From NCBI GenBank assembly GCA_963779325.1, contig CAVZXS010000011.1, forward strand, positions 400,858-464,857: a DNA stretch of 64,000 nucleotides, in the 5' to 3' direction. Shown here one piece after another: positions 20,458 through 42,407 of this stretch; within the stretch, counting starts at the first letter, position 1; each line of letters starts with the position of its first letter. A model generated the notes under the pieces. It ran no database searches, had not been told where the DNA came from, and saw nothing but the letters and a program-made list of their open reading frames with translations. The stretch is from an uncultured Bacteroidota bacterium. GTDB taxonomy: Bacteria > Bacteroidota > Bacteroidia > Chitinophagales > Chitinophagaceae. The translations under genes were made by a program, and so were the position numbers.

Positions 20458-20511
20458 CCATAAAATTAAAATGCAAATAATTGTAAATTAATTATTTGCG
20501 AAAATAAGTTG

Positions 20512-20598
20512 CGGAGACTAAGGGATTCGAACCCTTGATACAGTTTCCCGTATACACACTTTCCAGGCGTGCTCCTTCAACCACTCGGACAAGTCTCC
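20512..20598 (-). tRNA. tRNA-Ser (anticodon GGA), class II with long variable arm
   Basis: reverse complement reads GGAGACTTGTCCGAGTGGTTGAAGGAGCACGCCTGGAAAGTGTG...GGGTTCGAATCCCTTAGTCTCCG; anticodon loop CT-GGA-AA; its 3' end is the att core of the adjacent integrative element. Confidence 0.85.
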
Positions 20599-24999: not shown

Positions 25000-27900
25000 A
25001 TGAGAAAAAATCTACTCCCCCTATTCATTCTCCTTTTTTATACCAAATTAATAAATGCGCAAGCTAAAGATGATCCGATAGAACTTAAAAATTTATCGGT
25101 AAGCATTAAAGCGGACTTGTTTACAGCCATTACAACACTCAACATGGAATTTTATAATCCCAATGCAAAAGTGCTGGATGGTGAGTATAATTTTTCATTA
25201 AAAGACGGGCAAGTGATTACAGGCTTTGCATTGGACATTAACGGCTTCATGCGTGAAGGCGTAATCGTAGATAAACAAAAAGGCAGAGTAGCGTATGAAA
25301 ATATAATCCGGCGGCGTGTTGACCCGGGTTTATTGGAAATGACTGCAGGCAATAATTATCGCGTAAGAGTTTATCCAATGCCTTCCAAAGGAGCCAGGAA
25401 AATAAAAATAATAATTACCGAACTTCTTTCTATAAAAGAAAATGCATTGCAATACAATTTGCCGTTGGATTTTTCATATCCCGTCAGGCAGGTTAAAGTT
25501 GATATTGCGGCTGAAACCGATGATATTTTGCCCTTAACAAATGATGGTCTTTTGAAAAAATCAGTTTTTTCAAAAAGTAATTCACAGTTTATTCTTCAGT
25601 ATGACGAAAAAAATACTGAAATAAAAAAGCCCGTATCCTTTCGTATTCCGCTTGATTCGAAGAGGAAAATTTTATGTAAACAAACAACGGATAGTGTAAC
25701 CCGATTTGCAATTCATTTAAAACCTGAAATGGAAAATTCAAAAGCGGCTTCTTTTTCATCGGCAACTGTTTTTTGGGATATATCATCCTCTGCCGCTCAA
25801 ACGGGATATCAAAAAGGATATTCAATTTCTTGAAAACATAATTGAGGAAAAAGAACTTGGTGATCTTACCGTTGTCACATTTAGTAATGCGGTTCATGAG
25901 GTAAAAGATTTCAAGGGCAAATCGATTGTTAATGCAGTACGCAGGTTTCTGTCTTCACAAATAACAGATGGCGGCACACAGCTGGGCTCAATTGATTGCA
26001 GCAGGTTTGATTCAGATGTTTATTTTTTGTTTAGCGACGGCTTGAGCAATTTCGGGAGCGATAAAATAAATACAACACAAAAACCTGTTTATTGTATTTC
26101 ATCCTCCGCAACAACAAATCAAACTTTACTCAAAAGAATTGCTGAACAAACAGGCGGGCGATACATAGACCTTTACTCAACTGAAATAAAAAAAGCAATA
26201 AATGAATTCAACAGTTTACAAAAAATATTGCTTTATGTTCAGTCAGCCAATAAAATGATTGCTGCAAATCTATCAATGCCGATAGCGTTTGATGATTGGG
26301 TAACATTTTCAGGAGAAATAAATGCAAAAACAGATACACTAATATTCGCTTTTGGCGATAACGGGCAAGTGCTAAAAACCGAAACGGTTTATCTTAATGG
26401 GATTGAAACATGTGTATCTGAATCGCCCGGCACCATAAATATTTTGCAACAGTATGAAAAAATATTAAAAGACAATGATGAAACCGTTTTACTGCCTTTT
26501 GCCAAAAAGAATAAATTGGTATCGACGGTTTCGTCTTTCATTGTATTGGATAACTTAGAAGATTATATCCAGTATGGAATAGAACCGCCATCCGATTTGG
26601 CTGATGAATATAATAAGCGGTTGTATGTAGTAAAACAAAAAGAAGAGCAACAGAAAATAGACGAAACCAATGCGGTAATTAATAACCTGAGGAAAACAGT
26701 TGCTTTATATAATGACCGTATTACCTGGTGGGATAAAAATGAACCGCTAATCAGCTTACAGGAAGTTGAAAAAAAGAATGAAGAGCGGTTGTCGATTAAT
26801 AACAATTCGAACGCTGATCAAAATGAAATATCAGAAAAGTCCAATAACAACGACAATGCTGATGTTTTTAAACTAAGCACTAATTCATTAAACGAAGTAG
26901 TTGTGGTTGGTTACGGAACTCAACAAAGAAGAGATATAACGGGATCCGTAGCTACTATTCGTTCTTCCGAATTTGCAAATTCAGGTACACTGAGTGTACA
27001 ACAGGCATTACAAGGGAAAGTAGCAGGGCTGATGGTTGTACAAAATAACGGATCACCCGGAATTGCTCCCAAAATTTTTATTCGCGGAGTCGGAACATTA
27101 GGTGCCAATAGAGAACCGCTTTATATATTGGATGGCATGCCTGTTGACGGAGATTTTATCGCTACTATTAATGTAAACGATATTGAAAGCTGTAAGCGTG
27201 TATAAAGATATACAGGCAAGTGCATTATTTGGCAGTCGTGCAAGTAACGGAGCTATTGTAATTACAACAAAAAGGGGTTTCAGAAACAGCAATCAATACT
27301 TACAGGGTGTAGCCAAGTATAAAGATTTGGATGATGTAGAATATGTTACAGAGTTGAAGGAAGTCGATAAAACAATGATTTATAAAAATTACCTGGGGAT
27401 GAAAGACAGCTTAGGTAAAGAACCTGCTTTTTATTTTGATGTAGCCCAGTTACTGTTTGAATCAGGTGATAAAGAAAAGGCGTTTCGGGTTTTAACAAAC
27501 CTGGCAGAGCTTGATAATGAAAGCCATCAATTGCTCCGTGCCATGGGTTATGTACTGGAAAGTTGGAAGATGGATGATGAAGCGGTTTCAGTTTATAAAA
27601 AAGTCTTACTGATAAAAGAAGAAGAGCCGCAATCATACAGGGATATTGCATTGGCATATGAAAGAAAAGGAGATCATCAGCAGGCAGTTGATATTTTATA
27701 CACCTGTCTTACAAAAAATTGGTATCAATATGAAGCAAGGTACAGGGGCTTAAAATCATTATTGCTGAATGAAATGAATGCAATCATATTGCAACAAGGT
27801 AAAATATTGGATCTTTCAAAGATTAACGGAGGCGTTATTAAACCGTTACCTGTTGATCTGCGTATTGTTATTGACTGGAATAAAGATGAAACGGATATTG

Positions 27901-28214
27901 ACTTGCACATAATTGAACCGGGTGGTCAAGAGTGTTCTTATCAAAATCATAATACTAAGAACGGAGGTCGGCTGTCAGAAGATTTTACCCAAGGCTATGG
28001 TCCCGAAGAATACCAAATAAAAGAAGCTAAAAAAGGCAAGTATGCAATACGGGTAAAATATTATGGAGACAGGTACCAAAAGCAGCAGGTACCATCTTTT
28101 ATTAAACTGACGATTTATAAGAATTTCGGAAGACCTGATCAATCTGTAAAAATTGAAAACTTAATTATGGACTATCAAACGGGGATGGTTGAAATAGGAG
28201 AAGTTAAGTTCTAA
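25000..28214 (+). pseudogene. large multidomain protein (VIT domain, vWA domain, TonB-plug-like segment, TPR region, C-terminal DUF2135-like domain) broken into three ORFs by two frameshifts
   Basis: ORF1 25000..25833 (VIT-like; ...VFWDISSSAAQ then shifts), ORF2 26027..27205 reads back without stops to ~25800 in the +1 frame, ORF3 27183..28214 continues in another frame (IVITTKRG plug-like motif, TPR-like helices, DLHIIEPGGQECSYQNH...YYGD DUF2135-like). Confidence 0.6.
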
Positions 28215-28308
28215 AAAATATTTTCTAAAAAATTCTTTGCAAAAAGTTGGCAGTATCAAAAAAATAAATTCATCTTTGCACCGCAAAACAAAATTTAAAA
28301 AACAAAAC

Positions 28309-28401
28309 ATGTTACACATACAGCTACATATTGAGTCGGTGAATTGGTTTAGTCCTAAGGGTGACTATACAGTTTGCGGGGCATGTTATGCTGATGAATA
28401 A
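28309..28401 (+). CDS. candidate small peptide ORF (30 aa) MLHIQLHIESVNWFSPKGDYTVCGACYADE, followed by a strong terminator
   Basis: ATG at 28309, stop 28399-28401; below the ORF-track size cutoff; terminator at 28429-28456. Confidence 0.3.
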   Translation: MLHIQLHIESVNWFSPKGDYTVCGACYADE

Positions 28402-28428
28402 GTTAAACCGAATTCGATATAACACAGG

Positions 28429-28456
28429 CCCCGTAAGTGATTGCGGGGTTTTTTTT
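28429..28456 (+). terminator. rho-independent terminator
   Basis: CCCCG-taagtgatt-gCGGGG followed by TTTTTTTT. Confidence 0.65.
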
Positions 28457-28596
28457 GGCCCCGCCTAAATCCTCCCCAAAGGGGAGGACTTGAGAAAAAC
28501 TTAAAACTGTGCATTGTTTTGTGTAAAACAAACAGAATTGAATCTATAATAACATAAAAAATAAAAGTGCTGAAACAATTTAAACATAAACGATTT

Positions 28597-28725
28597 ATGA
28601 AACTGAATGATTCGTTATCATCGACAGGATGCTATTGGTATGTGCCGGCGGGCAGAAGTATTGAACCCATAGGCAATGAGAATGATAATAAACATATACG
28701 ACCGAGTTGTGCCCAAACACAGTAA
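28597..28725 (+). CDS. candidate small peptide/leader ORF (42 aa) MKLNDSLSSTGCYWYVPAGRSIEPIGNENDNKHIRPSCAQTQ
   Basis: ATG 28597, TAA 28723-28725; its 3' end overlaps the upstream arm of an antiterminator-like stem. Confidence 0.3.
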   Translation: MKLNDSLSSTGCYWYVPAGRSIEPIGNENDNKHIRPSCAQTQ

Positions 28726-28746
28726 ACTGTGTTTGAATAATAAGAA

Positions 28747-28775
28747 CCCGGTCGTATAAAACGACCGGGTTTTTT
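28747..28775 (+). terminator. rho-independent terminator with competing upstream pairing (attenuator-like)
   Basis: CCCGGTCGT-ataaa-ACGACCGGG plus TTTTTT; the CGGTCGTATA segment can alternatively pair with TATACGACCG at 28695-28704. Confidence 0.6.
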
Positions 28776-28875
28776 GTACCCCTAACCCCTAAAGGGGGAT
28801 AAAAAGCTCAGCAGGTCGTACATGAATTAAATAATTGGAAAATCCTTTTTGGGGAAGGGCTAAGGAAGGTAAGTG

Positions 28876-29013
28876 ATGAAATTTTTATTAGCAGTATTGG
28901 CTATTCATTTTATAATTGAATTGATCAACAATAAAAGAAAATCGGGGGAAGAGAATATAGAGAATGAGATGAATGAAAAAATTATTCATCCGTCGGAATA
29001 CAGCATAAGATAA
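28876..29013 (+). CDS. candidate small membrane protein (45 aa) MKFLLAVLAIHFIIELINNKRKSGEENIENEMNEKIIHPSEYSIR
   Basis: hydrophobic N-terminal helix then charged tail; terminator hairpin 29041-29073 follows. Confidence 0.35.
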   Translation: MKFLLAVLAIHFIIELINNKRKSGEENIENEMNEKIIHPSEYSIR

Positions 29014-29040
29014 AAGTATTAGATGCAGAAAGGAGGAATA

Positions 29041-29073
29041 AGTGCTCCCCGTGAGATGCAGCGGGGACACTTT
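29041..29073 (+). terminator. terminator hairpin GTGCTCCCCG..CGGGGACAC plus TTTT
   Basis: imperfect 9-bp stem with U-tract. Confidence 0.5.
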
Positions 29074-29210
29074 TAAAAGCCCCTATCCTCCAAAGGGGAT
29101 GATGAAAGTGAATACGGTTTGGTGTATGGTAACATATTCTTCTCCCTTTCTTTCTGAAAGGAAAATAGCAGGAGAAAGTTTTCGGTTCAAATCCGGAAGC
29201 CGTACAATGG

Positions 29211-29281
29211 TGGCTTATAGTTCAACGGAAGAATGCTGTGCTACGAACGCAGTGATATAAGTTCGAGTCTTATTAAGCCAA
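29211..29281 (+). tRNA. tRNA-Arg (ACG), AT-rich divergent
   Basis: clean cloverleaf: acceptor TGGCTTA/TAAGCCA, D arm GTTC-AACGGAA-GAAT, anticodon arm CTGTG-CTACGAA-CGCAG, T arm ATAAG-TTCGAGT-CTTAT. Confidence 0.6.
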
Positions 29282-29326
29282 CAAAAGTTGATGACCTGTA
29301 GCTTAAGTTTTTCAGTCATCACAAAA

Positions 29327-29401
29327 TGGTTCGTAGCTCAATTGGATTAGAGCTTCCGGTTTTTACCCGGAAGGTTGTGAGTTCGAATCTCACCGGGCCA
29401 A
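29327..29401 (+). tRNA. tRNA-Lys (TTT), divergent (two G-U pairs in acceptor)
   Basis: acceptor TGGTTCG/CGGGCCA, D arm GCTC-AATTGGATTA-GAGC, anticodon arm TCCGG-TTTTTAC-CCGGA, T arm GTGAG-TTCGAAT-CTCAC. Confidence 0.55.
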
Positions 29402-29405
29402 CAAA

Positions 29406-29483
29406 GGGAATATAGTTCAACGGCAGAATCCCGCACATGCGGGATTAAGCCATCAGATGAATGTTCGAATCATTCTGTTCCCG
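29406..29483 (+). tRNA. tRNA-like pseudogene (acceptor, D and T arms intact; anticodon arm replaced by a 6-bp/4-nt-loop hairpin)
   Basis: GGGAATA...TGTTCCC acceptor, GTTC-AACGGCA-GAAT D arm, GAATG-TTCGAAT-CATTC T arm, but central TCCCGC-ACAT-GCGGGA cannot form a 7-nt anticodon loop. Confidence 0.35.
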
Positions 29484-29487
29484 CAAT

Positions 29488-29574
29488 TGTGAGTTCGACA
29501 AAGATGGAGAGTTGTAGCAGACTGTAAATCTGTTGTTCAAAATACTGAGATGGTTCGAATCCATCCGCTCACAC
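29488..29574 (+). tRNA. tRNA-Tyr (GTA), class II, slightly non-canonical spacing
   Basis: anticodon arm GCAGA-CTGTAAA-TCTGT matches the bacterial tRNA-Tyr anticodon arm; long variable region; T arm GATGG-TTCGAAT-CCATC; acceptor TGTGAGT/GCTCACA. Confidence 0.45.
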
Positions 29575-29577
29575 AAT

Positions 29578-29661
29578 GGAGAGAGTCCGGTTGGTCGAGG
29601 AAGCTGTCTTGAAAACAGACCGGGTGTAATAGCCCCAAGAGTTCGAATCTCTTTCTCTCCG
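29578..29661 (+). tRNA. tRNA-Ser (TGA), class II
   Basis: acceptor GGAGAGA/TCTCTCC, anticodon loop CTTGAAA, T arm AAGAG-TTCGAAT-CTCTT (same T arm as E. coli tRNA-Ser UGA), long variable arm. Confidence 0.6.
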
Positions 29662-29816
29662 CCGGTGAAAACATCCCCTCCACGGAGGGGCGAGTTGAGG
29701 AAAACATATTGCTATAGGAGACCGGGGTGGGTTGCTGAATAGCCATATGCAGCACAAGTGTGCGACGCAAGGGACGATGACCGGAGTTACTACAGCCGGT
29801 AACAAAAAAATAGTTT

Positions 29817-29901
29817 GGAGAGTTGACAGAGTGGTAATGTAATGGCCTGCTAAGCCATACATCGTTTATTCGGTGCAAAGGTTCGAATCCTTTACTCTCC
29901 G
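29817..29901 (+). tRNA. tRNA-Ser (GCT), class II
   Basis: acceptor GGAGAGT/ACTCTCC, anticodon arm ATGGC-CTGCTAA-GCCAT, T arm AAAGG-TTCGAAT-CCTTT, long variable arm. Confidence 0.65.
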
Positions 29902-29962
29902 CTTTAATCAACAAAGCTTTAGCGAAGTTGATAAATTGTTTGACAATGGGTGAATTCGATAG

Positions 29963-29982
29963 CCTGCCTGCCGGCAGGCAGG
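29963..29982. repeat. perfect 20-bp palindrome CCTGCCTGCCGGCAGGCAGG
   Basis: near-identical 21-bp copy at 30269-30289. Confidence 0.7.
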
Positions 29983-30015
29983 TGAGGAAATAGTAATCAA
30001 TCAATACTCATTTCA

Positions 30016-30087
30016 AACAACCGGACGAATAGCTCCAATGGCAGAGCAGCGGTTTGAAGCACCGTGGTTATAAGTTCGAGTCTTATT
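30016..30087 (+). tRNA. tRNA-Phe (GAA)
   Basis: canonical 72-nt cloverleaf: acceptor GGACGAA/TTCGTCC, D arm GCTC-CAATGGCA-GAGC, anticodon arm GCGGT-TTGAAGC-ACCGT, T arm ATAAG-TTCGAGT-CTTAT (identical T arm to the tRNA-Arg at 29211). Confidence 0.65.
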
Positions 30088-30253
30088 TCGTCCGCGTAGA
30101 AAAGTACAATAAGAAAAAAGATGAATAAAGAACAAATGTCGAATGGAGCGTCGCCAATGTCGCTATATCAGGGAACAGAAGTTGGAAAACAAAATACTCC
30201 TTCGCTAAAGCTACGGAGTACAAGAAAAATTTAAATACCCTGCGGGGAAAACA

Positions 30254-30766
30254 ATGGAACAGGAACAACCTGCCTGCCGGACAGGCAGGCAACAATGGAG
30301 AAAATTAAACGGGCAACGGATTCAGCAACCAATTGAAGACGAAGTAAAAGAAGTATTGATGCGTGAAAAAGAAATGGGACATGAATTAAAAGTATGCATC
30401 GGTACCGATAGCCAGGTAAAAGGTCGTGTAACAGAGTTCGCAACCGTTATCGTTTTCATTCGTAAAGGAAAAGGCGGTTTTATGTATATACACAATGAAA
30501 CTACCAAACAGAAAATGACCATTAAACAACGGATGTTGATTGAAGTAGCAAAAAGTATTGATGCGGCTTACCCGTTGTGTAATATTTTCAGCCGGTACAG
30601 TGTGGATATGGAAGTGCATGCCGACATCAATACCAACCAAAACTTTAAAAGTAATGATGCCTTGAAAGAAGCAATGGGCTATATTATGGGTATGGGATTC
30701 GTTTTTAAAGCCAAGCCGGATGCTTTTGCAAGTTCAAGTTGTGCTAATAAAGTGGTAAACCCCTAA
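30254..30766 (+). CDS. hypothetical protein (possibly DUF458/YkuK-like RNase-H-fold protein); true start may be the internal Met at 30359
   Basis: 170-aa ORF; VCIGTDSQVKGRVTEFATVIVFIRKGKGGFMYIHNETT core; ORF N-terminus is encoded by the palindromic repeat, suggesting a later start. Confidence 0.4.
   Translation: MEQEQPACRTGRQQWRKLNGQRIQQPIEDEVKEVLMREKEMGHELKVCIGTDSQVKGRVTEFATVIVFIRKGKGGFMYIHNETTKQKMTIKQRMLIEVAKSIDAAYPLCNIFSRYSVDMEVHADINTNQNFKSNDALKEAMGYIMGMGFVFKAKPDAFASSSCANKVVNP
30269..30289. repeat. 21-bp near-perfect palindrome CCTGCCTGCCGGACAGGCAGG (second copy)
   Basis: see 29963-29982; lies at the 5' end of ORF 30254..30766. Confidence 0.7.
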
Positions 30767-30984
30767 ATCCCTTAAAGGGGACATCGGGCCGTTGATAACT
30801 GAATGAATCTTAAAATAATCATAAGCCTTTTAAGCCTCCCCTTTGGGGCAGGTTTAGAGGGGCTACAAAAAGCTTGCCTAACGGCAAGATGGTCATTAGT
30901 ATGTTGCCGGCAAACCGGATGAGTGTTTTTAAAACACCATAGTACAGACGTAGTAACTATCTGTATGCTGTTGCATCAATATGC

Positions 30985-31170
30985 AGTGTCCACCATACTC
31001 TGTGGGTCAAGGGTTCGATTCCCTTTCACTTTTACTAGTGGTAGCTCAGTTGGTTAGAGCAACAGAAAGCAGCGCCGGTTCGACTCCGGCTCCGACACAA
31101 CTCGGATAGTTCAGTGGTAGAACACTACGTTTAGGACGTGGAAGTCGGAAGCTATCGCCACTTCCTTAAA
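30985..31170 (+). other. cluster of tRNA-derived fragments / pseudo-tRNAs
   Basis: T-arm remnant AAGGG-TTCGATT-CCCTT (31007-31025) with no matching acceptor; D-arm-plus-T-arm unit TAGCTCAGTTGGTTAGAGC...GCCGG-TTCGACT-CCGGC (31041-31090) lacking an anticodon arm; D-arm unit TAGTTCAGTGGTAGAAC (31108-31124) with non-canonical 3' part. Confidence 0.35.
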
Positions 31171-31451
31171 AAGGCGACTAACTAAAAGCAGGTGTTGCTT
31201 TCCCGATGAATTGTAAATGCCGGGGTGAAAACCGGAGTTAACAAAACATCAATTTGATTAACACCAGAAAAATGCAATGCCGTTATACTACAGGTTGCAC
31301 TTAAACAATGTTGAATTACTGACAACAAGTTCAGTAAAAAATATAGTTTAACTGTTTCTTTAAAAATAACTAAAGGTATTTTCCGTGAGAATGAAATGGA
31401 AAGCAGCGCCTGCTTTATTAAAACAAACTTGAAAATTTAAAATAGAAGACA

Positions 31452-32549
31452 ATGAAAAAAGTAAAAGTAAATGCCTATCAAATTGCGTTGGTATTTAAAA
31501 ACGGTGTATATCGGCGTATGTTGAAAGAAGGTACCTATTGGTTGTGGAACGAAAATGTGTACATCTACGATGTAACCAAATCTTTTATTGCACCGATAGA
31601 GTTGAATATTTTATTGCAGGATGCCGAATTAGCCAATGCATTACAGGTAATTGATGTAAGCGATAACGAAATTGTATTGCAGTACCGGGAAGGTTTGTTA
31701 ACACAAGTATTGACTGCCGGTCGTTATACTTTTTGGAAAAGCGTAATTAACTACGAGTTTGTTAAAGCAGACATCAGCAAAATAGACATTACTGAAAACA
31801 TCAGCCGTGCCGTATTGCAAAACAAATTAGTAGCGCCGTATGTACATACTTACAATGTAGAGAATTATGAGAAAGCCGTATTATTTATTGACGGTAAGTA
31901 TGCACAAATATTGCAGGCCGGCGTATATTACTGGTGGAAAAACAATATTACCATTGCAGTAGGCAAAGCAGATACCCGTATGCAGCAAATAGAAATCAAT
32001 GGCCAGGAAATTTTGACCAAAGACAAAGCTGCGTTGCGTATCAATGGTTATGCTCAATACAAAGTTGCGGATATAGAAAAAGCTTTGTTGCAAAACAAAG
32101 ACTATGAACGCCAGTTGTATGTAGCTTTCCAGTTGGCATTGCGGGAGTACATCGGTGGCCTGGCATTTGATGAATTGTTGGAGAAAAAAGAAACCATTGT
32201 ACCATTTATTTTAGAAGCGGTAAAAACTGCTGCTGAAAATTTGGGTGTAGAAGTAAGCGGTTTCGGTATCCGTGACATTATTTTGCCGGGCGATGTAAAA
32301 GACATCATGAACAAAGTATTGGTGGCGGAAAAAAATGCGCAGGCCAACAGCATTATGCGGCGTGAAGAAACTGCAAGCACCCGTAGCTTGTTAAACACTG
32401 CCAAATTGATGGAGGATAATACCATGTTGTGGAAATTGAAAGAGATGGAATACGTAGAGAAGATTGCCGATAAAATCAGCAATATCAGCGTAAGCGGTAA
32501 TGGCGCATTGATTGAACAGTTGAAACAGATATTTGTAGCGCAGAAATAA
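31452..32549 (+). CDS. SPFH/band-7 (stomatin/prohibitin-like) domain protein with N-terminal triple-repeat extension
   Basis: 365 aa; C-terminal half has SPFH-domain pattern (..ALREYIGGLAFDELLEKKETI..GVEVSGFGIRDIILPGDVKDIMNKVLVAEKNAQANSIM..); N-terminal ~180 aa contain three ~55-aa repeats (VLQYREGLLTQVLTAGRYTFWK / VLFIDGKYAQILQAGVYYWWK / ALVFKNGVYRRMLKEGTYWLW). Confidence 0.75.
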   Translation: MKKVKVNAYQIALVFKNGVYRRMLKEGTYWLWNENVYIYDVTKSFIAPIELNILLQDAELANALQVIDVSDNEIVLQYREGLLTQVLTAGRYTFWKSVINYEFVKADISKIDITENISRAVLQNKLVAPYVHTYNVENYEKAVLFIDGKYAQILQAGVYYWWKNNITIAVGKADTRMQQIEINGQEILTKDKAALRINGYAQYKVADIEKALLQNKDYERQLYVAFQLALREYIGGLAFDELLEKKETIVPFILEAVKTAAENLGVEVSGFGIRDIILPGDVKDIMNKVLVAEKNAQANSIMRREETASTRSLLNTAKLMEDNTMLWKLKEMEYVEKIADKISNISVSGNGALIEQLKQIFVAQK

Positions 32550-33566: not shown

Positions 33567-34322
33567 TTGTCTTTAAATGAACATTCTCTGTATTGCAAAT
33601 GTTCTGCTGCTTCAAATGATGACCTAAGCATTGTTCATTCTGGAATACAGGTCTTTGGTGAAAAGGTTGGTAAAATGGAGCTTCTATTAAATAGATTAAA
33701 GTCAGAATTTCACTTGGCAAGAAAACTACACTTTGAGAGTTTCAGTAAAACCGTCGATAAAGAGGAAATATTTTTTAGCGAGCTAATGGACAAAGAAATG
33801 ATAGGAGAAGAAGTAGAAAAATTGAGAATAGCTTTTAGAATGTGCTTTGGCATATTTGACAAAATAGCGCATGGAATTTGTTACTTTTTTGAATTGCCGA
33901 AAAAAAAGAATGAAAATATCTATTTTGAAATTTTGGGATAATGGCAAATGTCCGAAAGGTGGAAGAAATTAAAAGATTTACAAAATCCGCATTTAGTGGC
34001 TTTATATAGCATTGCAAATGATTTTAATAACCGTCAAGGTGAGTTTAATTTCTACAAAGTATGGAGAAACAAATTTGAGCATAATAACTTAATATTAGTC
34101 GATAAAACTGACGAATTGGATTTACTTAAACTTTTTGATGATGAAGAATTTATAAGTAAGGTTTCGTTTTCTTTTTTCAAAGAACAAGCATTACATCTGT
34201 TGCAGATTTGTTGTTCTGCCATATATAGTTATACTTATTTGGTACGAACTGAAAGTATGCAGAGTAATAATGACGTGAATTATATTCCGTTTAGTATTAA
34301 ACCTAAAACTAAATCAATCTAA
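33567..34322 (+). pseudogene. hypothetical protein split by a single in-frame TAA (33939-33941); ORFs 33567..33941 and 33948..34322 share one reading frame
   Basis: both ORFs are in frame 0 and separated only by TAA-TGG-CAA before the next ATG. Confidence 0.35.
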
Positions 34323-34419: not shown

Positions 34420-34719
34420 ATGGAACACAAACCCATCAGAAAGAAGCAACGTAAGTACGATGCGGATTTCAAAAAAGAAGTATTAAAGATGATCGAATCC
34501 GGACGTCCTGTACCGGAAGTAGCTCAGTCCTTAGGCATTGGCAGCAACCTGATTTATTACTGGAAAAAGCAGTTACTTAAGCCTGATGTAAAAAACAGGG
34601 TTGATACAGCCGTGGTGTATGACGAGGAGAAATCCTTGCTGCAGAAACGGATAAAGGAGTTAGAAACAGAGCGGGATATTTTAAAAAAAGCCTTGGGCAT
34701 TTTCAGCCGTCCGATATAA
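34420..34719 (+). CDS. IS3-family transposase OrfA (HTH)
   Basis: 99 aa; KKQRKYDADFKKEVLKMIESGRPVPEVAQSLGIGSNLIYYWKKQ HTH; leucine-zipper-like C-terminus. Confidence 0.85.
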   Translation: MEHKPIRKKQRKYDADFKKEVLKMIESGRPVPEVAQSLGIGSNLIYYWKKQLLKPDVKNRVDTAVVYDEEKSLLQKRIKELETERDILKKALGIFSRPI

Positions 34720-34724
34720 CAGCG

Positions 34725-35714
34725 TTGTATCAATTTGTCAGTACTAATCAACCTGAGTATGCTGTACAGCTGCAGTGCCGTGTGTTGGGCTGCAGCCGCA
34801 GTGGATATTACAGTTGGTGTTCGGGAAAAATACATCAGCCAAATGAAAAAATAAAAAAAATGGAACAACAGGTGATAAAAATATTTCAGGAACATCGCCG
34901 CCGCTATGGTGCCCGGCGTATAGCCAAAACGCTTCAATGCGCAGGTGAAAAGGTTAGCCGTTATAAAGCAGCAAGGATATTAAACAAGTTCGGAGTAAAA
35001 GCCATACAGCCCCGCAGCTTTGTTCCTAAAACAACGGACAGTCGCCACGCATATAAAATCAGTCCTCTGTTATTATTGGACAAGCCTAAGCCCGGCAAAC
35101 CTAATGAAGTATGGGTGGGTGATATTACTTACCTCCCGTTGTCGGGCGGCCAATGGTGTTATATGGCCGTATGGATGGATTTGTTTTCCCGGAAAATTAT
35201 TGGCTGGCACATTGATGATAACATGCAGGAGGCATTGATAACAACAGCATTTAAAAAAGCAGTAAGTACCAGAAGTATTGAACAGGGATTGATTGTTCAT
35301 TCCGACAGAGGAGGTCAATATGCAGGCAATGCGTTTAGAAAAATGATAGCAGCCAATAATATGCTGCAAAGCATGAGCCGCGCAGACAACCCCTATGATA
35401 ATGCCGCTATGGAATCTTACTTCAGCCGCTATAAGGCGGAGCTGTTGCAATATGGAATATTTGATAACCTGCAAGATGCCCGGACAGAAACATTCGAGTA
35501 TATAGAAATGTACTACAACACCAAACGGATACATTCATCGCTGGACTATAATAATCCCATGCAATACGAACAAATTTATGAACAAAACAATAACTTTATG
35601 CCGGACAAACAAACGGCGATGCTTTATAATGAAGAATCGTCTTTTATTGAAAGGGGCATCGAGCCCCTTTCAATAAAGCACAAACAAACAGGCTCAGCAT
35701 TACCCAAAGAATAG
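34725..35714 (+). CDS. IS3-family transposase OrfB (DDE integrase core), expressed as OrfAB fusion by -1 ribosomal frameshift
   Basis: rve-type core VWVGDITYLPLSGGQWCYMAVWMDLFSRKIIGW...HSDRGGQYAGNAF...; reading the -1 frame from the A7G motif joins OrfA to this frame without stops. Confidence 0.85.
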   Translation: MYQFVSTNQPEYAVQLQCRVLGCSRSGYYSWCSGKIHQPNEKIKKMEQQVIKIFQEHRRRYGARRIAKTLQCAGEKVSRYKAARILNKFGVKAIQPRSFVPKTTDSRHAYKISPLLLLDKPKPGKPNEVWVGDITYLPLSGGQWCYMAVWMDLFSRKIIGWHIDDNMQEALITTAFKKAVSTRSIEQGLIVHSDRGGQYAGNAFRKMIAANNMLQSMSRADNPYDNAAMESYFSRYKAELLQYGIFDNLQDARTETFEYIEMYYNTKRIHSSLDYNNPMQYEQIYEQNNNFMPDKQTAMLYNEESSFIERGIEPLSIKHKQTGSALPKE

Positions 35715-36665: not shown

Positions 36666-36851
36666 ATGAAATTGAAATTAACAGGAAAACAAATCCGTGC
36701 CATTGGTTACGCAGAAGGGCCGGTGGTAAGTGTGGCCATGCATACCATGAGTACACACTTTAAACACAGTACCGAAGAAGAAGCATTGCAAATATTAAAA
36801 GATGTATTGGCAGCGCCGGAAAATTATTTGGCAGATGAAGTGATTATCTAA
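36666..36851 (+). CDS. hypothetical small protein upstream of rtcB
   Basis: 61-aa ORF. Confidence 0.3.
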   Translation: MKLKLTGKQIRAIGYAEGPVVSVAMHTMSTHFKHSTEEEALQILKDVLAAPENYLADEVII

Positions 36852-36868
36852 AATTGCAGAGAAATTAA

Positions 36869-38114
36869 TTGATAGTTGAAAGAAGAAAGGTAACTGGAAA
36901 TTCCATTAAGGAAAAAGGCGTGGAGTACAATGTTTTTGGTGCCAAGCATATTGAAGAGGGTGCTTTGCTGCAAATGCAAATAGCTGCTAAATTACCCGTG
37001 GCTGTTGCCGGTGCATTGATGCCGGATGCACACCAGGGCTACGGCTTACCGATAGGCGGTGTATTGGCAACAGATAATGCCGTTATTCCGTATGCGGTGG
37101 GTGTGGATATTGGTTGCAGAATGTGTCTAAGCATTTTTGCCATCAATCCCGATGAGTTGAAAAAGAGAGAAGCTAATTTTCAACGGGAGTTAGTGGCCAA
37201 TACATTGTTTGGTGCAGGAAGAGAATTCAGTACCGAACACTGAACATGAAGTACTGGACAGAAAAGAATTTACTGAAATAAATTTCTTGCAACCATTGCA
37301 GCATAAAGCATTAAAGCAATTGGGCAGCAGCGGCAGCGGTAATCACTTTGTAGAGTTTGGTAAAGTAGAAATTACGGACGAGAACAACCCGATGGGATTA
37401 CCGGTTGGTAATTATGTTGGTTTGTTAAGTCATAGCGGCAGCCGCGGTTTGGGCGCCACCATTGCCAATCACTATACACAAATTGCCATGCAAAAAACAC
37501 CGTTGCCGAAAGAAGCCAAGCATTTAGCATGGCTTGGGTTGGATACTGAAGAAGGAATGGAATACTGGCTGGCCATGAATTTGGCGGGTGATTATGCTTC
37601 TGCCTGTCACCATACCATACATGCAAAAATTGCAAAAGCCATTGGTGAAAAACCGTTAGCCATGGTTGAGAACCATCACAACTTTGCATGGAAAGAAATG
37701 TATGAAGGAAAAGAAGTGATTGTACACCGTAAAGGTGCTACACCTGCGGGTAAAAATGTATTGGGAATAATTCCGGGCAGTATGACGGCACCGGGCTTTA
37801 TAGTAAAAGGTAAAGGTGAATTGACTTCTTTAAATTCTGCAAGCCATGGCGCCGGGAGAAAAATGAGTCGCAGCAAAGCATTAGTCAATATTACCCATGA
37901 TGCATTGAAAAAAGAATTGAAGGAGCATGGTGTGAAATTAATAGGCGGCGGATTGGATGAAGCGCCGTTTGCTTACAAAGACATTCATGAAGTAATGCAA
38001 TGCCAAACAACGTTGGTAGATGTACTGGGGAAATTTTACCCGGTTATTGTACAAATGGATGGTAATGATCCAAGAAAACACAGGAAGAGAAGGGATGAAG
38101 TAGCAGGTGAATAG
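36869..38114 (+). pseudogene. rtcB: RNA-splicing ligase RtcB, split by a frameshift near 37209-37243
   Basis: N-terminal ORF has MPDAHQGYGLPIGGV..AVGVDIGCRM; C-terminal ORF has GSGNHFVEFG, LLSHSGSRGLG, HHNFAW, HRKGAT, IIPGSMTAPGFIVKG, SASHGAGRKMSR - all hallmark RtcB motifs. Confidence 0.85.
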
Positions 38115-39696: not shown

Positions 39697-40278
39697 GTGC
39701 TGCCTTTAAAAAAACGTAGTTCTACTTATGGCAGTCCATGCGGGGTTGTATACTTTTACTGTAAATCGTTAATCTTAAAATTTATTATTATGAGAATGCA
39801 ACCAACAATTTGTAAAATTTCCTTCCTGCTTGTTTTATCAGTAATCGTTTTATCCTCCTGCGATAATGAAAACGGCACAGGTGTTAATATTCCCAACCCT
39901 AAAGACACATCGGCCCTGGGCAGGATCAATCATTTTATCCCGCAGGATGAAATAGAAAGATTTAAAAAAGATTATATGGTAGTTCGTGACAGCCTGGCCC
40001 GTTCCAACCCCGATTTTTTTATTCCCCTTACAGAAGCATTTAATAAACAAGCTCTGCTTGATTTATTGAAAGACCCTAAAAACGTAGGCCTGAAAATTTA
40101 TTACGGTGTAAAAACAGGTAAGAGAAAAGAACTCCGCATGATCATTGTGGGCGTAGATGAACAAGGCAATGATTTATACCTAATCGGAGGCGAAAAATCT
40201 GCAGTGGCAGCCCAAGTAACAGGTGGCGGCGGTAAAGGTGGTTTAGAATACGGCCAATGTCCTCCCTGCGAAGAATAA
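39697..40278 (+). CDS. hypothetical lipoprotein (likely start at Met 39790, MRMQPTICKISFLLVLSVIVLSSC)
   Basis: signal peptide with lipobox LSSC; C-terminus GQCPPCEE. Confidence 0.45.
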   Translation: MLPLKKRSSTYGSPCGVVYFYCKSLILKFIIMRMQPTICKISFLLVLSVIVLSSCDNENGTGVNIPNPKDTSALGRINHFIPQDEIERFKKDYMVVRDSLARSNPDFFIPLTEAFNKQALLDLLKDPKNVGLKIYYGVKTGKRKELRMIIVGVDEQGNDLYLIGGEKSAVAAQVTGGGGKGGLEYGQCPPCEE

Positions 40279-40327
40279 TCTGTTAGTGACAGGTTTTATA
40301 TATTGAAAGAACTGTAACAGAGAAAAC

Positions 40328-41002
40328 ATGAACGATACCATTCGCTTTATTCTAAGCCTTAGTATATTACCCGCGACAGTTATAGGGGCGGTAAAATTCC
40401 GTAAGATGGATCCGTCTTACCGCCTCTTTATATATTATATATTTTTTGTTCTGGGCTTTGAGGTATTTGTGTATTCCCTGATGCGCCTTGCCGAACAACA
40501 GGCGGCGTTTAGTACCCTGGGAGTTTCTTATAATATATACGCTATTGCAGAATTCAGTTTTCTTACATGGGTATTCCATAAATGGGGCTTATTCAATAAC
40601 AATCAAAAAGTTTTTCTTTCCATCATAGTTGTTTTCCTGTTATCGTGGTTTCTCTCCACTTTACTTATTAAGGGATTTTATAAAAGGAATCACTATTTTG
40701 CCATCGCCTATTCATTTGCATTGATTTTTTTCAGCATTTCGGCATTCAACAAGCTGGTGGTGCAGGAACGCAAATCCATGTTGAGAAATCCTAAATTTTG
40801 GATTTGCCTCGGCATTGTTATTTTCTTCAGTTATTTTGCTATAAGCAGTTCTGTAAAAATTCTGATATTTCGAAATGATGACAATAAAGAATTTTTTGAT
40901 AAACTTCAAGATATAAATGTTTACGCAAATCTCTTAGCAAATCTGCTGTATGCTGCAGCTATATTATGGATACCCAACAAAAAGAATTTTATAACTCGTT
41001 GA
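40328..41002 (+). CDS. polytopic membrane protein (6 predicted TM helices), possibly the sensor domain of the downstream histidine kinase
   Basis: 224 aa hydrophobic; overlaps start of 40966..41712 by 37 nt in another frame. Confidence 0.45.
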   Translation: MNDTIRFILSLSILPATVIGAVKFRKMDPSYRLFIYYIFFVLGFEVFVYSLMRLAEQQAAFSTLGVSYNIYAIAEFSFLTWVFHKWGLFNNNQKVFLSIIVVFLLSWFLSTLLIKGFYKRNHYFAIAYSFALIFFSISAFNKLVVQERKSMLRNPKFWICLGIVIFFSYFAISSSVKILIFRNDDNKEFFDKLQDINVYANLLANLLYAAAILWIPNKKNFITR

Positions 41003-41712
41003 TGATTGTTGTAGTGGTGGTGGGTATCATATTACTCTTCTTCATCATTACCATCATTCGTTACCAGCGAAAAACAATGCGCTGGAACAAGGAGAAAATA
41101 CGTGCCGAAATAGATACATTGGAAAATGAACGCCGCCGCATTGCCGCCGATTTGCACGATGAACTGGGGCCTTTGCTTTCAGCAGTTAAATTGCAAATTA
41201 ATAACTTAGATACCAACAATGCGGATGATAAAATTATTATTGATAAATCCAGTCACTACATTGATAATATTATTGGTAAGCTGCGGGAAATTTCCAACAA
41301 CCTGATGCCCAATACGCTTTTACGCAAAGGGTTAAAAAAAGCGATGGAAGAGTTTTTGGAAAGCAGCAGCCGGTTGTATAAGATGGAAATAAAATTTACC
41401 TGCGATGACAACCTGCAGCTTGATCAGCAACAGGAAATAAATATTTACCGCATTCTGCAGGAGATATTTCACAATACAATAAAACATGCAGAAGCCACTT
41501 GCCTCATTATACGGATGACGGCGGAAAACAACCGGCTGATAATAGTAACGGCCGATAACGGGCAGGGCTTTGATTATTCTACAAAATCGAGAGAAGTTTC
41601 GGGCCTCGGGCTTCGTAACTTGCAGAGCAGGGCCGAGGTACTGGGCGGAGAAGTGGCCTGCTCCTCCGAACCCGGCAAAGGAACTATGTATACTTTCGAA
41701 ATTCCTGTTTAA
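40966..41712 (+). CDS. sensor histidine kinase (HisKA_3/NarL-type partner)
   Basis: one TM then H-box IAADLHDELGP, N/G-box region NTIKHAEAT..DNGQGFD, GLGLRNLQSRAEVLGG. Confidence 0.75.
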   Translation: MDTQQKEFYNSLMIVVVVVGIILLFFIITIIRYQRKTMRWNKEKIRAEIDTLENERRRIAADLHDELGPLLSAVKLQINNLDTNNADDKIIIDKSSHYIDNIIGKLREISNNLMPNTLLRKGLKKAMEEFLESSSRLYKMEIKFTCDDNLQLDQQQEINIYRILQEIFHNTIKHAEATCLIIRMTAENNRLIIVTADNGQGFDYSTKSREVSGLGLRNLQSRAEVLGGEVACSSEPGKGTMYTFEIPV

Positions 41713-41735
41713 TTTTTTTGTAGTTTAGCTTTAGT

Positions 41736-42407
41736 ATGACTAACACCCCTATCATTAAAATAATTGTAGCAGACGATCATGAAATTTTTCGTGACGGCCT
41801 TCGAATGATGCTGCTTAAGCAAGCCGATATAGAATTGGTAGCCGAAGCTGAGGACGGAAAGGAACTGATAGAGAAAATAAAAGTCTTTTTACCCGACGTA
41901 GTTATTACCGATATAAAAATGCCCCGCATGGACGGCATAGCGGCTACCCGCCACATTACAGAGCATTATCCATCCATCGGTATCATTGCACTTACCATGT
42001 TTGATGAGGATGACCTGATTGTAGACATGATGGAAGCCGGCGCCAAAGGTTATTTATTAAAAAACGCCGATAAAAATGAAATGGTGAATGCCATTAAGTC
42101 CGTGTATACACAGGAACCCTACTATTGCAAACACACTTCGCAGCGCTTGGCGCAAATGGTTGCTAAAAGCAAGTTTAATCCTTACAAGCAATCAGCAAAG
42201 CCTGAGTTTAACGAAAGAGAAGTGGAAATAATTTGTTTTATCTGCGACGGTTTGACAAATAAAGAGATAGCAGCAAAAATATTTTTGAGTGTGAGAACGG
42301 TAGAAGGTCTCCGTATGAAAATATTGGAAAAAATGAACGTAAAGAACACAGCGGGTATTATTATTTATGCCATAAAGAATAATCTGTATACCGCCGCAAA
42401 AATCTGA
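41736..42407 (+). CDS. LuxR/NarL-family two-component response regulator
   Basis: REC domain (IIVADDHEIFRDGL..DIKMPRMDG) plus C-terminal LuxR HTH (LTNKEIAAKIFLSVRTVEGL). Confidence 0.85.
   Translation: MTNTPIIKIIVADDHEIFRDGLRMMLLKQADIELVAEAEDGKELIEKIKVFLPDVVITDIKMPRMDGIAATRHITEHYPSIGIIALTMFDEDDLIVDMMEAGAKGYLLKNADKNEMVNAIKSVYTQEPYYCKHTSQRLAQMVAKSKFNPYKQSAKPEFNEREVEIICFICDGLTNKEIAAKIFLSVRTVEGLRMKILEKMNVKNTAGIIIYAIKNNLYTAAKI

Follow-up and report, generated by a model that had tools for sequence, protein, structure and literature searches.

A tRNA array beside YkuK, Band-7 and RtcB genes in Chitinophagaceae: probably the eroded form of a spare tRNA operon on the chromosome, linked to tRNA repair

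Arrays of supernumerary transfer RNA (tRNA) genes, and the association of the RNA ligase RtcB with Band-7 proteins and tRNA-like RNAs, are already known kinds of system, the latter as a prediction only. The L-array of Anabaena sp. PCC 7120 is silent, is induced by ribosome-targeting antibiotics or translation inhibitors, aids survival and is co-regulated with rtcB; the phyla in which L-arrays are listed include the Bacteroidetes (Santamaria-Gomez et al. 2021, PMC8421152). RtcB is sometimes found beside a Band-7 protein and either a tRNA-like RNA (b7a-tRNA) or a YrlA-like RNA, according to a prediction by Burroughs and Aravind (2016) as quoted in a preprint (bioRxiv 10.1101/312249). In large phages, tRNA arrays have been proposed to counter host tRNases (PMC10264068; PMC11555353), and changes in the anticodon loops of phage tRNAs have been proposed to allow tRNase evasion (PMC10264068). 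Here we describe an array of tRNA and tRNA-like genes in a 64,000-nt stretch of DNA (hereafter the window) from an uncultured member of the Chitinophagaceae (assembly GCA_963779325.1, contig CAVZXS010000011.1, positions 400,858 to 464,857). We think it reasonably likely that the array derives from a spare tRNA operon on the chromosome, which soil bacteria of this family conserve and which is tied to tRNA repair, with a putative function as a reserve or decoy; the window would hold a reduced and partly eroded version of it.

The window contains the array and its surroundings, and coordinates given below are window positions unless a locus label precedes them. For comparison, 80 related loci (labeled L001–L080) were collected by a genome scan with the YkuK protein encoded next to the array; they come from Ferruginibacter, Niastella, Chitinophaga, Flavisolibacter, Puia, Lacibacter, Flavihumibacter, Segetibacter, Sediminibacterium and other genera. 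The closest relative, L087, has a YkuK that is 96% identical and flanking DNA that is 86–91% identical to that of the window. Phage loci were also used, among them those from Stenotrophomonas phage DLP_6 (L083), Vibrio phage KVP40 (L084) and Cronobacter phage S13 (L086). tRNA genes were called with ARAGORN, at default settings and at a lowered threshold (-ps80), and with Rfam covariance models, whose gathering scores are 29 bits for the tRNA model RF00005, 47 bits for tRNA-Sec and 69 bits for YrlA (RF02553). Proteins were scanned against Pfam, NCBIfam and PADLOC 2.0, with the Pfam scan covering about 27 open reading frames (ORFs) between 19.8 and 46 kb.

ARAGORN called seven tRNA genes in the whole window, six of them on the + strand between 29211 and 30095, and added a Ser(UGA) gene at 29578–29663 only when its threshold was lowered. 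The first-pass annotation of this DNA had drawn seven units from the letters alone, and these are borne out by ARAGORN and Rfam, with the 3′ end moved from 30087 to 30095. It had overlooked a non-canonical tRNA-like element (unit X, 29111–29210) and a collapsed remnant (29283–29326), as well as a leader and a set of palindromes described below. The seven units and unit X are packed into 985 bp on one strand with no periodic spacing; relatives hold up to 17 in about 1.7 kb. The units of the window are, from 5′ to 3′:

29111–29210, + strand: unit X, a non-canonical tRNA-like RNA; 104.2 bits on its own covariance model (R1), E 2e-28
29211–29282, + strand: tRNA-Arg(ACG); Rfam 60.9 bits, E 1e-11; U1-A72; CCA not encoded
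29283–29326, + strand: collapsed tRNA remnant, with acceptor strands TGATGAC...GTCATCA flanking a D-arm stub
29327–29402, + strand: tRNA-Lys(UUU); Rfam 64.3 bits; U1-A72; aligns with 43 orthologs
29406–29484, + strand: disrupted Asn(GUU)-type unit; Rfam 41 bits with permissive filters only and a 2-nt loop
29489–29574, + strand: tRNA-Tyr(GUA); Rfam 31.9 bits, barely over the gathering score
29578–29663, + strand: tRNA-Ser(UGA); ARAGORN at -ps80 only; anticodon stem of 4 bp plus a mismatch
29817–29902, + strand: tRNA-Ser(GCU); Rfam 63.5 bits; 24 orthologs
30023–30095, + strand: tRNA-Phe(GAA), type A; Rfam 56.7 bits; G37 in the anticodon loop

The scores of the array units are far above chance expectation. 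Taking a canonical tRNA to have at least 29 bits on RF00005, a full cloverleaf and a 7-nt anticodon loop, we count Arg, Lys, Ser(GCU), Phe and Tyr as canonical, and exclude the odd unit at 29406–29484, Ser(UGA) and unit X. The acceptor stem of Tyr contains T6-G67 and a T7-C66 mismatch, where its orthologs (n = 8) have seven perfect pairs. For Ser(UGA), RF00005 gives no match and the best Rfam model is tRNA-Sec at 37.8 bits, under its gathering score; the sequence nevertheless matches the Ser(UGA) genes of other arrays. The matches of the collapsed remnant in blastn-short are Ile tRNAs of other arrays, and it sits where full arrays have Ile(UAU)-Met-Ile(GAU)-Val. Arg and Phe have one T arm in common (ATAAGTTCGAGTCTTAT, read directly from the sequence), as had been noticed earlier, and two units (Arg and Lys) rather than the three once counted begin with a U1-A72 pair. 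The description of the array as divergent and AT-rich was overstated, as the G+C content of the units is 0.42–0.53 against 0.52 for the nearby host tRNA-Ser(GGA) (20511–20598, − strand). That gene had been held up as a canonical contrast; the contrast is weaker than claimed, with a score of 54.4 bits that four array units exceed.

The units of the window pair individually with orthologs in other arrays, by alignment and by blast, and since each finds its match, the window array can be read as a reduced version of a family-wide module. YkuK has thousands of close homologs in Chitinophagaceae (70–96% identical), and a look at related genomes, recommended by the first-pass annotation, found an array of at least two same-strand tRNA genes (ARAGORN) directly upstream of YkuK in 59 of the 80 loci. 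There are at least five tRNAs in 45 of these 80 loci, at least 10 in 20 and at most 17, and the array is absent altogether from 17. Gene order is kept as Pro-Glu-(Gly)-Asp-Gln-His-[unit X]-Arg(ACG)-Ile(UAU)-Met-Ile(GAU)-Val-Lys-Asn-Tyr-Ser(UGA)-Ser(GCU)-Cys-[unit Y]-Phe-Trp, where unit Y is a further element that is not a tRNA. Downstream of YkuK on the same strand lie genes for Band-7 (47 of 80 loci) and RtcB (43 of 80), and the order and orientation array–YkuK–Band-7–RtcB are kept in at least ten genera of the family. Carriers of the module include Niastella caeni HX-16-21 (NZ_STFF01), Niastella populi (NZ_LWBP01), Chitinophaga agrisoli BN140078 (NZ_VUOC01) and a Ferruginibacter chromosome (OZ251999). 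Intact loci additionally carry genes for an AAA ATPase and a DinB-fold (DinB_2) protein, both absent from the window module, whose part downstream of the array consists of the following.

30254–30766, + strand: YkuK-family RNase H-like protein (PF04308); Pfam E 3.7e-36; start ATG at 30254
30919–31188, + strand: structured non-coding RNA of about 270 nt, between YkuK and Band-7
31452–32549, + strand: SPFH/Band-7 (stomatin-like) protein; Pfam E 4.2e-30; matches stomatin structures at 3e-16
33567–34322, + strand: HEPN_LA2681 RNase-family gene with one in-frame stop; the Pfam halves cover profile positions 6–96 and 109–204
34420–35714, + strand: IS3-family transposase in two ORFs (Pfam HTH_Tnp_1 and rve), between Band-7 and RtcB
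36669–38114, + strand: RtcB RNA ligase pseudogene, in three pieces in different frames

Among 25 orthologs of Arg(ACG), compensatory changes were found at 14 of 21 pairs, and the U1-A72 pair is kept in 24 of the 25. Array members in seven relatives score mostly 45–72 bits on the Rfam tRNA model. These genes thus appear to be selected as tRNA-shaped RNAs. Cloverleaves kept by compensatory changes, scores like those of standard tRNAs (for four of seven units in the window and for most of those in relatives), conservation of the array in relatives and the reading of common codons could all be accommodated by an ordinary housekeeping operon that holds the main genes for these tRNAs, clustered as in Firmicutes. 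We nevertheless find this highly improbable. The first-pass annotation had named uniformly standard, high-scoring tRNAs conserved as core genome as the outcome that would tell against its own view; four of the seven units do score highly and the array is conserved, but its content ranges from 0 to 17 genes, and it is therefore not core translation equipment. Content differs even between close relatives. The array of L087 has units X and Y, Lys, a Phe of the other type and an Asn that is intact, but its Arg is disrupted, and Tyr and both Ser genes are missing; 17 of the 80 loci have no array; and members are often interrupted by palindromes. Arrays also contain tRNA-like units that do not decode, and in L031 a canonical, GC-richer tRNA-Phe with A37 lies outside the array, at a distance of 5 kb. 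The earlier view that the array is distinct from the housekeeping genes is thus supported, in the sense of a non-housekeeping class of tRNA genes. Its content appears to be dispensable and rapidly changing. For the window copy, the earlier suggestion of a recombination hotspot is fair, given the fast turnover relative to L087, in which the flanks are 86–91% identical and the array content is different. As a separate observation, Phe and Asn each come in two distinct sequence types that swap at the same array slot.

Composition also argues against a housekeeping role. The arrays together hold about 480 tRNAs, of which none is for Thr and few are for Ala, Gly, Leu or Val, all of them among the commonest amino acids in the genome of the window; array composition does not track codon demand. 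A comparison of codon usage, another check that had been proposed, showed that the array tRNAs read codons that are common in the host, and we rejected a role in codon supplementation. Position 37 of working tRNAs is nearly always a purine. In the arrays, pyrimidines are found there in several families: U37 in 6 of 14 Glu and C37 in 10 of 44 His genes, with U also found in Asp, which has G or U and never A. Phe has G37 in 29 of 46 array genes.

Among the published systems closest to this locus are the L-arrays. The two share many same-strand, closely spaced, non-periodic tRNA genes, a neighborhood rich in RNA-processing genes and a link to rtcB. Published L-arrays add redundant isodecoders; for the Chitinophagaceae array such redundancy is putative. 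In contrast to L-arrays, which are scattered by horizontal transfer, the Chitinophagaceae array is syntenic across the whole family, and it is physically joined to a fixed cassette of YkuK, a non-coding RNA, Band-7 and RtcB. The tie to rtcB is one of co-regulation in Anabaena and of physical linkage in Chitinophagaceae. L-arrays reach 43 genes, whereas Chitinophagaceae arrays have no more than 17; no HNH homing endonuclease was seen at the Chitinophagaceae module. Further differences from L-arrays are the conserved elements X, Y and the leader, which are not tRNAs, and the palindromes specific to these arrays.

Proximity of YkuK to tRNA genes extends to phages. Homologs occur in 73 phage records, all of them from large tRNA-rich phages. 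In phage DLP_6 the homolog lies inside the tRNA array (L083 5983–6465), in KVP40 it adjoins a DUF2828/DUF7788 ‘RNA-binding protein’ about 5 kb from the tRNAs (L084 4451–6462), in S13 it adjoins a CCA-adding enzyme (L086 5947–7519), and in Pseudomonas phage Astolliot it is 1–3 kb from tRNAs. The link between YkuK and tRNA arrays is recurrent and spans phages and bacteria, and it suggests a general role of the family in tRNA metabolism. At the start of the DLP_6 array (L083 710–1053), ARAGORN also calls a permuted gene resembling transfer-messenger RNA. Residues D38, E83 and E106/H108/D110 of YkuK are invariant from Chitinophagaceae through the phage homologs, and the protein appears to retain an RNase H-type acidic site. 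The family is placed in the RNase H-like superfamily by classification, with function unassigned (PMC3985635), and our search of the literature on YkuK/DUF458/PF04308 found only this fold classification. A PDB sequence search with YkuK gave no match, and the exact protein of the window has no database record.

These phage homologs bear on the proposal of the first-pass annotation that the array is a prophage remnant, that is, that the tRNAs were brought by a phage or an integrative element and have since decayed. The arrays of large lytic phages (T4-like, T5-like, DLP_6, KVP40) do resemble the Chitinophagaceae array in having clustered extra tRNAs, atypical anticodon loops, tRNA-Ile(UAU) and a PF04308 gene in or near the array. 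tRNA-Ile(UAU) is uncommon in bacteria and common in phages, and it is a regular member of the array. An IS3 element and a HEPN pseudogene within the window module, and the rapid turnover of array content, point the same way. Against this, and unlike the arrays of lytic phages, the array lies on the chromosome, is inherited within the family, has a neighborhood free of phage genes and is coupled to RtcB and Band-7. No phage structural, replication or integrase domain was found by Pfam in the roughly 27 ORFs scanned, where the sole mobile gene is the IS3 transposase. A blastn search of 28000–32000 against 50,697 phage records returned only pieces the size of single tRNAs, and the one viral contig with a YkuK relative (40% identity) has no tRNAs nearby. 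Finally, the order and orientation of the module and the high identity of YkuK are kept in at least ten genera with the same chromosomal neighbors. We consider a prophage or mobile-element remnant very unlikely; a recent one is excluded, and an ancient phage origin of the module is possible. What stands of the earlier phage association is the distant link through YkuK homologs in or near the tRNA arrays of large phages.

The genes around the array are ordinary cellular ones by Pfam, including TatD, glutamyl-tRNA synthetase, a polysaccharide deacetylase, a VIT/Plug/TPR set, a two-component system, TerC and a MurF-Alr fusion. The VIT, Plug and TPR/DUF2135 ORFs stand in a row at 25000–28214, and the same trio adjoins the module, on either side, in L011, L019, L021 and L035. 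A homolog of the HEPN gene was found at this place in one of the 80 loci; it is an accessory gene outside the conserved module.

The second known kind of system is met downstream of YkuK. In more than 40 loci YkuK is followed on its own strand by Band-7 and RtcB, and a conserved tRNA-like non-coding RNA stands beside Band-7; both features agree with the RtcB/Band-7/b7a-tRNA system, compared here by its quoted description only. That description, as quoted, does not include a long array of true tRNAs, YkuK, unit X or palindromes. The RNA at 30919–31188 consists of a 5′ hairpin, two circularly permuted tRNA-like modules (each with T arm, closed acceptor hairpin and D arm), an anticodon-like arm and a 3′ hairpin. 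It is found about 265–530 nt upstream of Band-7 in 36 loci. An alignment of 32 sequences has compensatory changes at 36 of 54 pairs, with 97.4% of cells paired, a result that none of 500 shuffles equaled. The RNA probably corresponds to the tRNA-like RNA that has been predicted to accompany Band-7.

The RNA also recalls YrlA (RF02553), which in Salmonella is found with Rsr/Ro60 and RtcBA; it too mimics a circularly permuted tRNA and is encoded next to an RtcB repair operon. The Rfam YrlA matches of the window RNA, at 31001–31123, score 35.6 and 30.9 bits against a gathering score of 69, and a partial tRNA match scores 29.6 bits. The window RNA differs further from YrlA in having two tandem modules and extra conserved hairpins, and the partner protein at the Chitinophagaceae locus is Band-7. 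Neither the window nor seven related loci contain a YrlA match at the gathering score, and the ORFs scanned around the module include no TROVE/Ro60 protein. In the same eight loci, neither units X and Y nor the leader nor the Band-7 RNA reaches the gathering score of any Rfam family.

Unit X accounts for a gap of about 100 nt between His and Arg(ACG) in most arrays; in the window it lies directly 5′ of Arg. It is called by neither ARAGORN nor Rfam. Its architecture includes a 7-bp acceptor stem, a D arm, a T arm and a bipartite anticodon arm of 13 bp (7+6), with an 8-nt 3′ bulge and a conserved YTTTCTR loop that is similar to the loop of tRNA-Glu except for a U at position 37. With the covariance model, each of 35 loci yields a single match over 80 bits, and the phage loci yield none. 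Compensatory changes were found at 18 of 29 pairs, with 97.2% of cells paired; none of 500 shuffles equaled this, and slid controls were 42–49% paired.

Upstream of unit X, the array is preceded by a small ORF and a hairpin, and a further element separates Ser(GCU) from Phe.

28876–29013, + strand: small ORF of 45 amino acids, MKFLLAVLAIHF...HPSEYSIR, with a hydrophobic N-terminus
29042–29074, + strand: leader hairpin, GTGCTCCCCG-TGAGATGCAG-CGGGGACAC followed by TTTT; terminator/attenuator-like
29936–30019, + strand: unit Y, a non-tRNA element of about 60 nt, from an alignment of 24 pre-Phe spacers

The loop of the leader hairpin repeats the upstream AGATGCAG. In the window and 19 further loci the hairpin precedes the first array unit, whatever the identity of the first tRNA, and no same-strand tRNA lies upstream of it in those loci; it marks the 5′ edge of the array. 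Homologs of the small ORF occupy the same place in L001, L013, L020, L021, L039 and L053, with variants in six further loci, and the C-terminal motif HP(A/S)E(Y/F)xLR is conserved. The ORF has no match in Pfam, NCBIfam or PADLOC. We rejected a classic attenuator peptide with a run of codons, as the N-terminus and C-terminal motif are conserved as protein and the middle is variable; on these grounds attenuation is no more than possible. The ORF and hairpin together could form an attenuator, or could be merely a small membrane-protein gene with its terminator. A set of four genes, among them a HisKA_3 histidine kinase and a LuxR-type response regulator, follows RtcB in the window (39697–42407); in L014, L016, L024, L030, L033, L039 and L053 it directly precedes the array. 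It may be a regulator of the module or just a conserved neighbor.

Unit Y is always directly upstream of tRNA-Phe in arrays and has the pattern TGTTTG..AATTCGAT-GATGAGGAAATA..ATCAGTCAATA..CAAACA. It was considered as a hammerhead ribozyme on account of its GATGAG...GAAA, and this was rejected: position C3 is occupied by an A, and the boxes enclose no stem II. In the window, the unit is split by a palindrome, CCTGCCTGCCGGCAGGCAGG, at 29963–29982.

This palindrome is one of two kinds that are concentrated in the arrays, with the following counts.

TCCCG..CGGGA palindromes: 46 in arrays (77 kb), 29 outside (1341 kb), about 27-fold enriched
CCTGCC..GGCAGG palindromes: 9 in arrays (77 kb), 1 outside (1341 kb), about 150-fold enriched

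Of the 46 TCCCG hairpins, 16 directly follow the GTTC of the T loop in a fixed architecture (GTTC[TCCCG..CGGGA]), as in the tRNA-Lys of six loci, which reads GTGAGTTC[hairpin]TCACC. Sites in D loops and anticodon loops are also at fixed positions, and identical copies of a palindrome occur inside one array in five loci. In the window the CCTGCC palindrome is found in unit Y and at 30269–30289, where it makes an in-frame 21-nt insertion in the N-terminus of YkuK.

The clearest case of disruption in the window is the unit at 29406–29484. It had been described as having a collapsed anticodon arm, and this is confirmed: the arm is replaced by a 7-bp stem and a 4-nt loop, and the unit is an Asn derivative carrying a palindrome. 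Its best blast matches are array Asn(GUU) tRNAs, and the palindrome TCCCGCACATGCGGGA (29429–29444) substitutes for the 5′ half of the Asn anticodon stem-loop. The same architecture is found in the Asn slot of L034, L038, L062 and L076, with a conserved 3′ junction and a variable 5′ junction, and Asn is intact in L087. From the alignment, the shared architecture and the intact copy in L087, we conclude that the unit is a recently disrupted tRNA-Asn.

The non-canonical members might be something other than products of decay. Unit X and the hairpin-bearing tRNAs might be dedicated RNA parts of a YkuK/AAA/Band-7/RtcB machine, serving for example as baits for anticodon nucleases or as substrates to be cut and religated, with the palindromes as a tiny mobile or templated diversifying element and the small ORF and leader as an attenuator that senses translational trouble. 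We judge this unlikely. The same RNAs were also considered as intron-containing pre-tRNAs of archaeal type; they have no bulge-helix-bulge, removal of the insert leaves an abnormal loop, and we keep this only as a reading of low probability.

Disruption is not confined to Asn, and the earlier description of a decaying array is upheld by the hairpin-disrupted Asn, the collapsed remnant, the lost members, the frameshifted RtcB and the IS3 element. Searching with intact RtcB from L013 and L033 (tblastn) recovers residues 3–61 in frame 3, 68–190 in frame 2 and 191–487 in frame 3, and the protein is intact in L087 (481 amino acids). Band-7 and RtcB are 4 kb apart in the window, with the IS3 element and accessory genes between them. 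In total, erosion amounts to two frameshifts in RtcB, a nonsense codon in HEPN, the IS3 insertion, the absence of the AAA and DinB genes, about ten array slots lost, one disrupted and one collapsed. The module thus appears to be in the course of being lost from this genome.

Does the window array then still do anything? It could be a neutral, functionless relic of a module under deletion, in which only YkuK, the non-coding RNA and Band-7 are still useful. The broken RtcB and HEPN genes and the IS3 insertion are what such decay would leave behind, as are the missing AAA and DinB genes, the disrupted Asn, the tRNA remnant, the weakened acceptor stem of Tyr and the empty slots for Pro to His, Ile to Val, Cys and Trp. 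However, the window retains intact versions, near the family consensus, of Arg, Lys, Ser(GCU) and Phe, of unit X and the leader, and of YkuK, the non-coding RNA and Band-7, and frameshifts in a draft assembly can be sequencing errors. A neutral relic is in our estimate possible though doubtful. It would cover this one copy only and not the family-wide existence of the module, and in that respect it complements the interpretation of the array as a reduced copy of a spare tRNA operon.

At the level of the family and the window, the analysis establishes that the module keeps its synteny and order, that the cloverleaves are under purifying selection, that unit X and the Band-7 RNA have the structures given above, that array content varies and is dispensable, and that the window copy is eroded. 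From these, the following model can be proposed. In full, the module would comprise, on one strand, the small membrane-type ORF, the leader hairpin, up to 17 tRNAs, YkuK with or without the AAA ATPase, the permuted tRNA-like RNA, Band-7, the DinB-fold protein and RtcB. The array would be expressed conditionally and supply tRNAs as a reserve or as decoys. When tRNAs are cleaved or translation is impaired, transcription would read through the leader hairpin and produce the array together with the repair proteins; YkuK might process the transcript or trim damaged ends, and the resealing of cleaved tRNAs would fall to RtcB, acting with the Band-7 scaffold and the tRNA-like RNA of that scaffold. 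Array members are almost only tRNAs of split codon boxes, which have modified wobble bases that are recognized by anticodon nucleases. This make-up, together with the unusual anticodon-loop positions, fits a reserve or decoy. We infer such a function from these two features, from the Anabaena analogue (PMC8421152) and from the parallel with the escape of phage tRNAs from tRNases (PMC10264068).

Several points weigh against this interpretation. The functional model as a whole is one we infer, and the support for redundancy of the array with the housekeeping set is indirect. No regulator or sensor of tRNA damage was identified in the module, and the leader hairpin may only terminate the small ORF. 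Many array members across many genomes are disrupted by hairpin insertions, which fits poorly with a useful back-up pool and could instead reflect weak selection. In the window itself RtcB is broken, and the activity of the module is probably impaired. PADLOC 2.0 gave no significant defense match for the module proteins, with a weak TRIP13 match to the AAA ATPase (E 5e-4). A scan of the module proteins against NCBIfam was uninformative.

In the literature we found no report of the family-wide fusion of array, YkuK, non-coding RNA, Band-7 and RtcB, of unit X, of the leader or of array-specific palindromes; Burroughs and Aravind (2016) may already describe part of it. For the annotation of the window, the array is best recorded as chromosomal and partly pseudogenized, and not as a prophage marker. 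Palindromes at fixed positions in tRNA loops are a phenomenon in their own right. The module bears on the role of the YkuK/PF04308 family and of the predicted Band-7-associated tRNA-like RNA. Our search of the literature on spare tRNA arrays in bacteria found a single functional study, in Anabaena (PMC8421152). In Chitinophagaceae, a link between a spare tRNA array and repair would be encoded in the genome itself, with the array joined to a putative nuclease, an SPFH scaffold with a tRNA-mimic RNA, and an RtcB ligase. Niastella and Chitinophaga are culturable carriers, in which it could be addressed whether spare tRNAs serve as reserves or as decoys against tRNA-cleaving toxins.

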